Below, in pieces: positions 59,260 through 62,026 of a stretch of 64,000 nt of DNA. This DNA is from an archaeon. GTDB lineage: Archaea > Undinarchaeota > CAZHTU01 > JBDRCC01. A program made the position numbers and the translations under genes. Position 1 is the stretch's first letter; each line of letters begins with the position of its first letter. The notes beneath the pieces are model-generated. The model worked only from the letters and a program-made list of their open reading frames with translations. It did no database searches and was not told the origin of the DNA. The DNA is taken from positions 54,691-118,690 of the forward strand of contig JBDRCC010000021.1 in assembly GCA_043822065.1 (NCBI GenBank), written 5' to 3'.

Positions 59260-60336
59260 ATGGACATCGAAAAAAGGATAGAACTGGTAAAGAAGCTCCC
59301 AACCGAGGAGCTTATAACCGAGGAGGACCTCCGCAGGCTCTTTGAGGAAAAGAAGCACCCTGCGGCATACGACGGGTTCGAGCCGTCCGGCCTTCTCCAC
59401 CTCGGCTCAGGCGTCATGCGGGCGATAAAGCTCAAGGACATGATGGATGCCGGAGTGAATTTCAAGCTCTTCATCGCCGACTGGCATGCATGGGTCAACC
59501 AGAAGTTCGGCGGCGACCTTGAAAAAATTCAGACCGCAGGAAAGTACTTCATGGAGGGCTGGAAGGCGTGCGGCGTTGACATGTCCAAGACCGAAGTCGT
59601 CTGGGCTTCAGACCTTGTCAAGGACCCGGAATACTGGAAGACAGTGCTTGACGTGGCAAGGAAGACCACCCTTAAGCGGATGATTCGCGCCGGGACAATC
59701 ATGGGAAGAAAAGAGGAGGACATGCTCTACACCGGGCAGCTTTTCTACGGGGCAATGCAGGCGACAGACCCATTCTACCTAAAGGTCGACATATGCCAGC
59801 TCGGGATGGACCAGCGCAAGGTCACAATACTATCGCGGGAAATTGCGGAATCCCTCGGCTTCAGGCCGGTTGTCTGCGTGCACCACCACCTCCTCCTTGG
59901 GCTTTCAGGCCCGGTCCGCATGGGCAAGTGCGAGCCAGAGGACGCTGTTGAGAACAAGATGTCAAAATCAGTGGCAGGGAGCTGCATCTACATCCATGAC
60001 TCTGAAGCGGAGATAAAATCAAAAATAAACTCAGCATACTGCCCAGAGAAGGTCATTGACTCCAACCCGGTTGTTGAGCTCTGGAAGTACATAATATTCA
60101 ACAAGTTTGATTCCAGGACGATAAGGCGCCCTGCAAAATTCGGCGGCGACATCGAAGTCCAATCCTATGCAGAGCTTGAGACGAAGTACTCCTCCGGCGG
60201 CCTGCACCCAATGGACCTGAAGTCCGCGACTGCCGAAGCTCTGAACGAGATACTCGAGCCTGTCCGCAAGCACTTCTCCAAGGGCAAGCCGAGCGAGCTG
60301 TACGAGAAGGTCAAAAGCTTCCAGCTCACGCGCTAA
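59260..60336 (+). CDS. tyrS: Tyrosine-tRNA ligase (archaeal type)
   Basis: YDGFEPSGLLHLG, IADWHA, YGAMQATD, LGMDQRK, KMSKS and LHPMDLK motifs. Confidence 0.96.
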   Translation: MDIEKRIELVKKLPTEELITEEDLRRLFEEKKHPAAYDGFEPSGLLHLGSGVMRAIKLKDMMDAGVNFKLFIADWHAWVNQKFGGDLEKIQTAGKYFMEGWKACGVDMSKTEVVWASDLVKDPEYWKTVLDVARKTTLKRMIRAGTIMGRKEEDMLYTGQLFYGAMQATDPFYLKVDICQLGMDQRKVTILSREIAESLGFRPVVCVHHHLLLGLSGPVRMGKCEPEDAVENKMSKSVAGSCIYIHDSEAEIKSKINSAYCPEKVIDSNPVVELWKYIIFNKFDSRTIRRPAKFGGDIEVQSYAELETKYSSGGLHPMDLKSATAEALNEILEPVRKHFSKGKPSELYEKVKSFQLTR

Positions 60337-60337
60337 A

Positions 60338-60345
60338 TATAAATA
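60338..60345 (+). promoter_or_regulatory. TATA box for the serS leader transcript
   Basis: TATAAATA ends 22 nt before the uORF ATG, the same spacing as other leaderless genes in the window. Confidence 0.6.
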
Positions 60346-60367
60346 ACATTATCACCATCTCCCTACC

Positions 60368-60400
60368 ATGGCATTCGGGGAATCATCCTCTAGTTCTTGA
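60368..60400 (+). CDS. Putative serine-sensing leader peptide MAFGESSSSS
   Basis: ATG GCA TTC GGG GAA TCA TCC TCT AGT TCT TGA; five tandem Ser codons, 117 nt upstream of serS. Confidence 0.7.
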   Translation: MAFGESSSSS

Positions 60401-60476
60401 AGACTCATACAGCCCCCGCTATGCCCAACAAAAAACAAGCCGGGCAGCCAGGGGTTTATGAATTCAAGGGCGCCAT
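60395..60476 (+). promoter_or_regulatory. Long irregular hairpin overlapping the leader stop codon (candidate attenuator)
   Basis: Nested pairings CTTGAA/TTCAAG, TCATA/TATGA, AGCCCC/GGGGTT and TGCCC/GGGCA around an A-rich loop. Confidence 0.6.
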
Positions 60477-60517
60477 AAAGATAAATATGCAAAAAACATT
60501 GGGAAGTGTGATGAAAC

Positions 60518-62026
60518 ATGAAATTTGAGCTGAAAGGCAGCATGGCCCTGACGAAAAAAATAGAGAAGAAAGTGCTTGAGCCCCTAATCTCTGAGGCGAA
60601 CAAGACCATAATGAAGAAGGGCGCCTCCTCCGGCGGCGGCTCCACTATCGACTCTTTTTCAGTCTCAGGCACCGACCTGAAGCTCGAGATATCCAGCGAC
60701 CGCTACGTCCGCGCCCATGACGGCATGCTCCGCCTGAGGAAGTTCCTTGCGGAAAAAGCCGGAAGGGAGCACAAAATCGGCTTTCGCGGGATTACTATTG
60801 ACGAGTACAAGATAACTTTCGACGTGCCAGCCCCGCCTGAAAAGGAAATCAAGCTCCCGCTGGTAACCAAGATTTCATTCTCCGGTAAGAAGTGCACCGT
60901 CCTCCTGAAAAACATAGACGAGGACTTCCTTGCGAAGAACTACATCGACCGGATAATCAACCTCATCAATGAGAAGGCCCAGCCGGGCTACGGCGGCAAG
61001 ACCGAGCACTGGGAGCTCCTCTGGCAGTCCGGAAAGAAAAACCATATTTGGGACAAGGACCCGACAGCCGAAATGGAAAAGCTCGGCTGGCTGCAGCGGA
61101 CAAAGTCCCGCGGGCAGTGGATATTCGGCCCAGTCCCGACACAGATAATGCGGACGATGGAGCAGATAGTGGTCGACGAGATAATCAAGCCGCTCGGCTT
61201 CAGGGAGATGATTTTCCCGAAGCTCGTCACCTGGGACGTCTGGGCGAAGTCCGGCCATGCGAAGGGCATATACCCGGAAGCCTACTACGTCTGCCCGCCC
61301 AAGACCAGGGACAAGGAGTACTGGGAAGACGTCATAGACTACTTCAAGATAACCGGCGAGGTCGACACCAAGACCATCAAGGAGAAAATCAAGGAGCCGA
61401 TTGGCGGAATGTGCTACGCGCAGTGCCCGCCCTTCTGGCCATACCTCGACGGCAAGACGCTTTCGAAGGACGACCTCCCGCTTAGGGTGTTCGACAGGTC
61501 AGGCCCCTCCTTCCGCTACGAGGGCGGCGGCATCCACGGGATAGAGCGCGTGGACGAGTTCCACAGGGTTGAGCTTGTCTGGATGGGCACCCCGGAGCAG
61601 ACGTCCAAGGTCCACCAGGACATCCACGACAGGTTCCAGGAGATATTCAAGAACATCTTTGACTTCGAGGTCAGGACTGCATGGGTCACGCCATGGTTCC
61701 TTGCGCAGGAGGGCTCGACAAAGCTCGCTGACGAGAAGAAGACTATAGGCACAATCGATTTTGAGGCATACCTGCCCTACCGCGGGACGCGCGAGGACAG
61801 CGAGTGGCTCGAGTTCCAGAACGCATCGAACAACGGCCCGAAATACCCCGTCGCATTCAACGTCAAGGCGCAGGGCAACCCGGAGCTTTGGTCAGGCTGC
61901 GTCGGCGTCGGATTGGAGCGCTGGCTTGCAGTCTTTGCAGCGCAGAAAGGGCTCGACCCGAAGAACTGGCCTGAGCCGTTCAAGAGACGGTTCGGCGGGA
62001 ATGCCAGCGGGTTCAGGTTCCTTTAG
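60518..62026 (+). CDS. serS: Serine-tRNA ligase, methanogen (rare, Zn-dependent) type
   Basis: Long N-domain with RYVRAHDGMLRLRK; motifs YAQCPPF, DRSGPSFRYEGGG..GIERVDEFHRVE, WLEFQN and WSGCVGVGLERW. Confidence 0.93.
   Translation: MKFELKGSMALTKKIEKKVLEPLISEANKTIMKKGASSGGGSTIDSFSVSGTDLKLEISSDRYVRAHDGMLRLRKFLAEKAGREHKIGFRGITIDEYKITFDVPAPPEKEIKLPLVTKISFSGKKCTVLLKNIDEDFLAKNYIDRIINLINEKAQPGYGGKTEHWELLWQSGKKNHIWDKDPTAEMEKLGWLQRTKSRGQWIFGPVPTQIMRTMEQIVVDEIIKPLGFREMIFPKLVTWDVWAKSGHAKGIYPEAYYVCPPKTRDKEYWEDVIDYFKITGEVDTKTIKEKIKEPIGGMCYAQCPPFWPYLDGKTLSKDDLPLRVFDRSGPSFRYEGGGIHGIERVDEFHRVELVWMGTPEQTSKVHQDIHDRFQEIFKNIFDFEVRTAWVTPWFLAQEGSTKLADEKKTIGTIDFEAYLPYRGTREDSEWLEFQNASNNGPKYPVAFNVKAQGNPELWSGCVGVGLERWLAVFAAQKGLDPKNWPEPFKRRFGGNASGFRFL

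Follow-up and report, generated by a model that had tools for sequence, protein, structure and literature searches.

Ribosome-mediated attenuation is a textbook bacterial mechanism, and trpL, hisL and pheM–pheST of Escherichia coli are classical transcription attenuators of this type. T-box leaders upstream of serS in Firmicutes sense the charging of tRNA-Ser by direct tRNA binding and contain no open reading frame (ORF). Archaea couple transcription and translation, and to our knowledge no leader-peptide attenuator has been described in this domain. A full-text literature search, with subscription journals outside its scope, did not find one either, and within that scope the statement of an earlier sequence-only reading of the present DNA, that no archaeal leader-peptide attenuator of an aminoacyl-tRNA synthetase (aaRS) gene has been characterised, holds. 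The DNA in question is a stretch of 64,000 nucleotides (nt) of the contig JBDRCC010000021.1 (the window, numbered from its first letter), which belongs to an archaeal genome of the phylum Undinarchaeota. A ten-codon ORF with the translation MAFGESSSSS is located in this window between tyrS and serS, the gene for a methanogen-type seryl-tRNA synthetase (SerRS). With moderate confidence, this ORF is interpreted as a working leader peptide gene that senses the charging of tRNA-Ser.

By analogy, the Ser leader would work like the bacterial leader-peptide attenuators but would stand outside their classical class, the terminator being missing. The shared features are a small ORF that contains consecutive cognate codons, helices that exclude each other, which are seen here in silico, and an aaRS operon as the target, as in pheST. 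The distinct features are that no hairpin followed by a U-tract is present, that the mRNA is predicted to be leaderless and that the codon run is placed at the end of the ORF rather than in its middle. With T-box leaders the locus shares the theme of tRNA-Ser charging upstream of serS. However, no T-box, riboswitch or small RNA family of Rfam 15 was detected between 59000 and 62000 at E values of up to 10, where the one match was noise (E 0.68) to a long non-coding RNA model, far below the gathering score.

The closest known system is that of the mycobacterial leaderless polycysteine small ORFs (sORFs), which form a Cys "ribulon" whose mechanism has been shown experimentally (Canestrari et al., bioRxiv 10.1101/834739); Actinobacterial candidate leader peptides are also near. 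The mycobacterial sORFs are located at the 5' end of the transcript, and the archaeal ones are predicted to be; both carry consecutive codons cognate to the downstream genes, both lack an intrinsic terminator, and both occur at several loci per genome, two in the present case. In contrast, the archaeal leaders have promoters with a TATA box and a B recognition element (BRE), the proposed signal is serine, and the target is an aaRS gene, together with serB in a relative. Moreover, the run always abuts the stop codon and the 5' end of the mRNA pairs behind that stop, and a duplex hiding the start site is predicted in silico for the cysteine synthase gene cysK of the source genome but was not found for serS. 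Candidate attenuators upstream of the aaRS genes trpS and leuS have been described in Actinobacteria (Seliverstov et al. 2005, PMC1262725); these cases are bacterial and have classical poly-U terminators, and the accessible part of that paper contains no serine or archaeal case. Ribosome profiling of haloarchaea (PMC7261190) has reported upstream ORFs (uORFs), none of which is linked to amino-acid sensing in the available text, where "leader peptide" is absent and "attenuation" appears in the reference list only.

The source genome (G000) consists of 1,026,769 bp in 22 contigs, is 82% complete and has a G+C content of 52.9%. The spacer between tyrS and serS is 181 nt long, whereas the median spacer of this genome is 38 nt, and the ATG of serS is at 60518. 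The positions given by the sequence-only reading for the TATA box, the ORF, the Ser codons, the hairpin and a second AT-rich box were all recovered on re-reading the sequence (Table 1). Because the Ser run draws on both codon boxes, TCN and AGY, it samples more than one of the tRNA-Ser isoacceptors, for which the genome has four genes. AGT and TCT, the rarest Ser codons in the genes of this genome (3% and 10%, respectively), together make up three of the five codons of the run.

Comparative evidence comes from a relative of the same order (G001), whose serS product is 64% identical. In the genomes compared, the order is represented by three and the phylum by 17, with no relative from the same genus or family, and G001 is the one close enough for a test of the Ser-run uORF and its synonymous variation. 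Both are found there: the ORF MVSQSSSSS is located about 40 nt upstream of serB, the end of which overlaps serS. The sequence-only reading had named the lack of the uORF or of its Ser run in relatives as evidence against itself, and this does not apply to G001. The SerB protein is a phosphoserine phosphatase with ACT and HAD domains (TIGR00338, 240 bits against a cut-off of 144). Because the leader of G001 precedes serB–serS, the link is to serine genes and not to tyrS.

When the two leaders are aligned, the TATA boxes are in register and CCTACCATGG is invariant. The Ser codons of G001 (TCTTCATCCAGTTCC) and of the source genome (TCATCCTCTAGTTCT) are identical at all ten first and second positions but differ at four of the five third positions, and AGT is the fourth Ser codon in both. 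Behind the ORF, TGAAGA and TACAG are kept. The residues preceding the run differ, AFGE in the source genome and VSQ in G001, with an indel of 3 nt. On the upstream side, the similarity sets in at the TATA box, before which the gene is a different one; downstream, it fades past TACAG. Change at every third base is the pattern that selection on codons would give. Because an unconstrained spacer would not align at 64% SerRS identity, the leader is presumably under constraint.

The promoter geometry was evaluated against the whole genome. Crude gene calling gave 1070 genes covering 91% of the genome, 378 of which have an upstream spacer of at least 60 nt. Relative to the start codon of these genes, the upstream sequence is A-rich from −35 to −33 and T/A-rich from −30 to −23, with little Shine–Dalgarno (SD) signal. 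A promoter matrix of 16 nt (AAAAAAnTTTATATA), refined on 293 ATG-start genes with at least 60 nt upstream, has its best match at −39 to −36 from the ATG in 125 of the 237 genes scoring above 3 bits. For 590 genome-wide matches of at least 11.5 bits, a gene start lies within 3 nt of the predicted transcription start site (TSS) in 242 and 4–30 nt downstream in 111. Since gene starts are at or near the predicted TSS, most mRNAs of this genome are likely to be leaderless or nearly so. The leaderless distance between the TATA box and the ORF that had been noted is borne out, the predicted TSS coinciding with the leader ATG in both genomes; on the box of G001, the matrix derived from the source genome scores 12.8 bits with an offset of 0, which places the TSS on the ATG of MVSQSSSSS and not on an earlier in-frame ATG.

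The sequence-only reading also suggested a genome scan for analogous uORFs, which has uncovered a Cys-run leader, MTAKVCCC, upstream of a cysteine synthase gene in the source genome (TIGR01136, 379 bits against a cut-off of 344). T5 tracts follow its stop codon. In the predicted fold (−39.2 kcal/mol, z −3.0), the GGAGG site of cysK is occupied by the segment just past the stop. When ribosomes are modelled as masks in the folding calculation, the access of the cysK start region is 0.31 on the free RNA, 0.87 or 0.70 with a ribosome on the Cys codons and 0.25 with a terminating ribosome. Thus, this leader is predicted by the folding model to switch in a manner similar to the mycobacterial sORFs.

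Of 30 loci with a cysK homologue, five, from at least four families, have an upstream ORF that ends in 3–6 Cys codons and a stop. The genomes are the source genome, two of the same phylum but of other families (G016 and G008) and two of another lineage (G027 and G325). In the four relatives, the leaders have 4–6 Cys codons and are located 110–280 nt upstream of cysK. At three of the Cys loci a tRNA-Cys(GCA) was called by ARAGORN; Rfam at the leader loci of relatives found tRNAs only. Judged from their gene order, these four loci look like a unit of leader, cysK and tRNA-Cys. The cysK locus of G001 has 119 nt of upstream sequence, which is too short to judge. Promoter matches of the five Cys leaders score 14.3–16.0 bits, so that across all seven leaders (two Ser and five Cys) the scores range from 12.8 to 16.0 bits with the predicted TSS 0–4 nt before the ATG.

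In the source genome, 45 genes have an upstream sORF bearing a run of at least three identical residues. Among the 26 of them that are annotated, the amino-acid-specific ones are serS and cysK, each with its cognate run. No third locus with a cognate run was found among the 108 run-bearing upstream sORFs of this genome, and no leader was found upstream of its tRNA-Ser and tRNA-Cys genes. One of the other run-bearing sORFs, MGTQRRR (G000:C7:31667-31690, plus strand), ends in an Arg run and a stop 243 nt upstream of the gene for RNA polymerase subunit B, with a promoter score of 1.5 bits; it is probably a chance occurrence, the downstream gene not being arginine-specific.

The Cys leaders also bear on the idea that the ORFs encode micro-peptides whose poly-Ser or poly-Cys tails act in trans. 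The ORFs are conserved and probably translated, as far as their sequences tell, and a bacterial leader peptide with a role in trans, peTrpL, is on record. However, only the run is conserved, AFGE being replaced by VSQ and the Cys runs being preceded by 4–8 unrelated residues, and each time the repeated residue is cognate to the downstream gene. This idea is thus scarcely credible.

Table 1 Features of the Ser leader locus (positions in the window) and of the Cys leaders
Feature	Location	Strand	Details
tyrS	59260..60336	+	stop 60334-36; NF006330, 412 bits; upstream neighbour, outside the leader unit
BRE/TATA promoter of the leader	60331..60346	+	TATAAATA at 60338-45; 13.0 bits; predicted TSS 60368, the A of the leader ATG
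Leader ORF MAFGESSSSS (10 codons)	60368..60400	+	ATG 60368, TGA to 60400; CCTACCATGG and AGTTCYTGAAGA invariant against the G001 homologue
Helix P1, 5' arm	60370..60380	+	pairs with 60414-25; −18.2 kcal/mol, 0/1000 arm shuffles as good
Ser run, proposed sensor	60383..60397	+	TCA TCC TCT AGT TCT (TCATCCTCTAGTTCT), directly before the stop
Long hairpin	60393..60471	+	base over the last Ser codons and stop; −32.1 kcal/mol, z −3.7, 0/200 shuffles as good
Helix P1, 3' arm	60414..60425	+	reused by the long hairpin; begins 13 nt after the leader stop
Second promoter-like box before serS	60473..60488	+	11.8 bits; predicted TSS near 60510, 8-nt leader to the serS ATG
serS, methanogen-type seryl-tRNA synthetase	60518..62026	+	PF18490 and PF00587; NF002120, 623 bits (cut-off 611)
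Cys leader MTAKVCCC	L036 1425-1451 = G000:C22:5924-5950	+	115 nt before cysKM; promoter 14.3 bits, predicted TSS 4 nt before ATG
Cys leader MNTMDLCCCC	L038 (G027), upstream of cysK		Cys run and stop; tRNA with a likely intron behind cysK
Cys leader MKLNLCCCC	L040 (G016), upstream of cysK		Cys run and stop; tRNA-Cys(GCA) between leader and cysK
Cys leader MNTDKICCCCCC	L041 (G008), upstream of cysK		Cys run and stop; tRNA-Cys(GCA) between leader and cysK
Cys leader MRKMACCCCC	L121 (G325), upstream of cysK		Cys run and stop; tRNA-Cys(GCA) just after cysK

A chance ORF in an ordinary spacer, which would hold a 3' hairpin of tyrS and one or two serS promoters, has to be weighed against the leader reading, and several results speak for chance. 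The likelihood of a run of five Ser codons had been put at (6/64)^5 per position, and this figure was too low: 91 runs of at least five Ser codons exist in the six frames of the genome, mostly in or opposite coding sequence, which amounts to about 4.4e-5 per position or six times more. An ATG at the predicted TSS is weak evidence when taken alone. Out of 143 orphan promoter matches, namely intergenic ones that lack a gene start in the 30 nt downstream, an ATG occurs within 2 nt in 25 cases; 16 of these ATGs open ORFs of at least 20 codons, several of them very long and likely to be genes missed by the crude caller, and nine open ORFs of at most 14 codons, which is about the chance rate. Furthermore, most relatives are without the ORF, and the scan from which the locus originated covered very many windows, so that rarity by itself is not enough.

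Nevertheless, MAFGESSSSS is the only intergenic ATG-ORF with at least five Ser codons in this genome (512 intergenic regions, 85,907 nt, both strands), where 15 ATG-ORFs have a run of at least four of any residue. Among the 108 run-bearing sORFs upstream of a gene on the same strand, it alone joins a run of at least four with a 13-bit promoter match. The chance of such an ORF in the serS spacer is roughly 0.001–0.008. Because a homologous ORF of the same design exists in G001 and Cys counterparts exist in the source genome and in four others, chance does not account for the leader, and a SerRS identity of 64% argues against the match in G001 being an artefact of the same organism. A chance ORF is therefore very improbable.

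Computed folding of the RNA gives two alternative structures downstream of the promoter. Helix P1 is composed of 10 bp, in which 60370-74 pair with 60421-25 and 60376-80 with 60414-18; the latter is the CGGGG/CCCCG pairing that had been noticed by eye. Its loop holds all five Ser codons and the stop codon. At lengths of 59–73 nt (3' ends at 60426–60440), the nascent RNA has P1 as its minimum-energy fold, and the long hairpin replaces it once the RNA has been made to 60460 or beyond. Because the segment 60414-25 is common to P1 and the long hairpin, the two folds are mutually exclusive, in agreement with the alternative folds claimed by the sequence-only reading. The entire region 60368-60476 folds with −41.8 kcal/mol (z −4.1), and its ends are paired through ATGGC and GCCAT, as had also been proposed. 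The minus strand folds about as well over 60390-60475 (z −3.2) but not over 60368-60476 (z −2.5 versus −4.1). No second copy of the long hairpin was found in the source genome. A likeness of the hairpin to tRNA-Ser was not apparent by eye against the four tRNA-Ser genes, and its spacing and boxes, also judged by eye, do not fit a C/D-box or H/ACA RNA.

Pairing of the leader 5' end behind the stop recurs in the other leaders. In the six tested (two Ser and four Cys, that of G325 not being included), the 5' end pairs with a segment 11–24 nt past the stop, with p values of <0.001, 0.001, 0.034, <0.001, 0.26 and 0.09, so that p is at most 0.001 in three of six. In the Ser leader of G001, the segment begins 11 nt past the stop (−15.2 kcal/mol, p 0.001).

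Such structures raise the alternative that the locus encodes an untranslated structured RNA, either a 5' untranslated region or a small RNA of about 109 nt (60368-60476), in which the reading frame is incidental. The folding energy of this region, the pairing of its 5' and 3' ends and the position of the promoter exactly at its 5' end fit an untranslated RNA. However, third-base variation over 15 nt is the pattern of a coding sequence and not of a helix, the long hairpin is not conserved in G001, no Rfam family is detected, and the sister elements end in Cys runs before Cys genes. An incidental reading frame is therefore quite improbable.

In the leader-peptide interpretation, transcription would start at the leader ATG and produce a leaderless mRNA. 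The dwell time of the ribosome on the leader would depend on the supply of charged tRNA-Ser through the five Ser codons directly before the stop. A ribosome stalled on these codons would cover the 5' arm of P1 and the base of the long hairpin, and a ribosome that finishes the leader would free both, so that its position may decide between P1 and the long hairpin. The controlled unit would be serS in the source genome and serB–serS in G001. We infer translation of the leader, stalling of the ribosome, the direction of the response and its output. As the likeliest output we consider that translation downstream or the fate of the RNA is controlled, rather than intrinsic termination.

Putting the Ser and Cys leaders together, the evidence tips slightly towards a broader reading, in which archaea with small genomes run a regulon that is read by the ribosome. 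Leaderless mini-ORFs would sense the charging of tRNA-Ser and tRNA-Cys and control serB–serS and cysK–tRNA-Cys by pairing of the mRNA 5' end just behind the stop, with no need for intrinsic terminators. In this reading, the mini-ORFs have a common form, in which M is followed by 4–8 residues, 3–6 cognate codons and a stop.

The core of the overall interpretation offered by the sequence-only reading is supported, namely that a selected leader of Ser codons is tied to serine genes, and its output step is not. That reading proposed that ribosome stalling switches serS on. The alternative folds that it named are recovered, but an effect on the serS start does not appear: with ribosome masks, the predicted access of the serS start is 0.55–0.59 in every state, and no duplex hiding the start site was found in the modelled states of the source genome. 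The masks on the leader of G001 give access values of 0.51, 0.26, 0.55 and 0.38, which is neither a clean nor a correctly signed switch, and the fold of that leader is not significant (z −1.2). The P1 helices of the two genomes are not homologous column for column, and hence no strict covariation is present. An intrinsic terminator, that is, a hairpin followed by a U-tract, was not found upstream of serS either. T runs between 60401 and 60517 reach a length of 3 at most, as the remark on the absent U-tract had implied, and G001 has only UUUU. Because there is no T-tract, archaeal intrinsic termination is unlikely. All of these results weigh against the leader-peptide interpretation. On the other hand, an anti-SD-like CCACUCC in G001 overlaps the 3' arm of P1 and adjoins the GGGGUGA site of serB, and this overlap hints at translational control there, as far as the folding model goes.

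A six-codon ORF, MNSRAP (60458-60478, plus strand), and the GGGG preceding it are buried in the long hairpin, on its 3' arm. The access of its AUG rises from 0 to 0.75–0.91 only with a ribosome modelled on the last two Ser codons. As a remnant of an old serB start, it has about 50% identity only, and such an origin is not claimed.

The second AT-rich box before serS, mentioned as a candidate independent promoter, remains one at 11.8 bits. Leaders of 4–30 nt follow 95 of the 426 intergenic promoter matches in the source genome, and the box compares well with many genuine promoters of this genome. It could drive serS independently of the leader. The five-codon ORF MKHEI (60511-60528, plus strand) starts at the TSS predicted for this box and overlaps the serS ATG out of frame, and it could compete with serS initiation on the transcript from the box.

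The second box is one of the grounds for regarding the leader as vestigial. According to this explanation, an ancestral leader of serB–serS has become uncoupled, the second TATA box now drives serS, and the leader with its hairpin is an intact leftover or gives a stand-alone short transcript. SerB was not detected in the source genome (best tblastn E 0.33), and for this reason the leader may be a leftover. The 8-nt leader behind the second box belongs to a common class in this genome, and in none of the modelled states does the hairpin reach the serS start. Besides, the end of serB of G001 contains, at the same relative place, a match to the 9-mer ACATTGGGA that precedes serS; a search for serB remnants in the tyrS–serS spacer gave only 7–9-mers with E of at least 1.8. 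However, unconstrained DNA should be randomised at 64% SerRS identity, yet the TATA box, the ATG, every one of the Ser codons, the stop and a P1 specific to the lineage are all preserved. In a genome as compact as this one, 181 nt of junk would be unexpected, and at 82% completeness serB may have been missed. A vestigial leader is therefore unlikely.

The narrow distribution of the Ser leader also counts against a working sensor. Two Ser leaders were found, both in one order. Of the 15 methanogen-type serS loci that could be evaluated, 14 (29–57% identical) have no run of at least four Ser codons followed by a stop in up to 2.5 kb of upstream sequence; two loci (L014 and L024) were left out of this count, their contigs starting inside serS. 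The leader is likewise absent upstream of bacterial-type serS in 4 of 4 relatives and of other SerB-like loci in 3 of 3. With a sequence profile built from the two leaders, 149 of 150 relatives gave no leader, and only the source genome and G001 rose above noise. Three of the eight weaker matches were inspected and are ordinary leaderless gene starts or coding sequence.

The place where the leader is sought matters for such counts. A stretch of 300–400 nt upstream of serS showed no leader in 15 relatives, and in G001 those bases lie inside serB. In public metagenome and genome collections, the serS relatives reach 54–66% identity only, and the one at 66% starts inside serS and has no upstream sequence. 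For expression, the contigs aligned with the present locus cover 60136-60239, 60699-60734 and 60899-61100, none of which reaches the spacer. A pattern search with TCNTCNTCNAGYTCNTGA in 401 genomes was discarded: about 90 matches were obtained, a similar number came from the reversed control, and all 30 inspected lie inside long open frames.

If true, the broader reading of a ribosome-read regulon would provide, within the limits of our searches and knowledge, the first case of ribosome-mediated amino-acid attenuation in Archaea and, across all domains, the first of a seryl-tRNA synthetase gene under the control of a leader peptide. The case for an archaeal counterpart is built on the coupling of transcription and translation, on mRNAs that mostly start at the ATG in the source genome and on conserved Ser and more widespread Cys leaders. 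If real, the locus offers a sequence-defined system for asking how the archaeal ribosome signals downstream in the absence of a hairpin-plus-U terminator, and organisms with about 1 Mb of DNA would have retained sensors dedicated to serine and to cysteine, whose pathways are linked. For the exploration of other genomes it would supply a simple rule, in which a promoter is followed by an ATG, a few codons, a homo-codon run and a stop, all placed before the cognate gene.

Several further observations concern serS, the promoters and the translation signals. With the present query, only four of the 17 genomes of the phylum (G000–G003) were found to encode methanogen-type SerRS, and several others have the bacterial-type enzyme. 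Outside the order, the closest serS genes (54–57%) come from metagenome-assembled genomes (MAGs) labelled Altiarchaeia, and this sequence similarity suggests a possible transfer of serS. An Altiarchaeia MAG (L026, about 2330–2360) contains a copy of about 30 nt of the serS start, with the ATG and the first codons, about 140 nt upstream of the real start. On the minus strand of the present locus (60337-60354 and 60430-60500), promoter-like matches score 10.9 and 8.8 bits and place a TSS close to 60315, in antisense orientation to the 3' end of tyrS, and two T6 runs are present on the same strand, one within the hairpin loop and one near 60491-96. The 3' end of the 16S rRNA of the source genome is GGATCACCTCCT, and SD-like 4-mers are enriched solely before operon-internal genes (44% versus 21%). 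GTGAT before serS was rejected as an SD site, because it is not enriched before operon-internal genes (1.6% versus 1.9%), unlike GGAGG and GGTGA.

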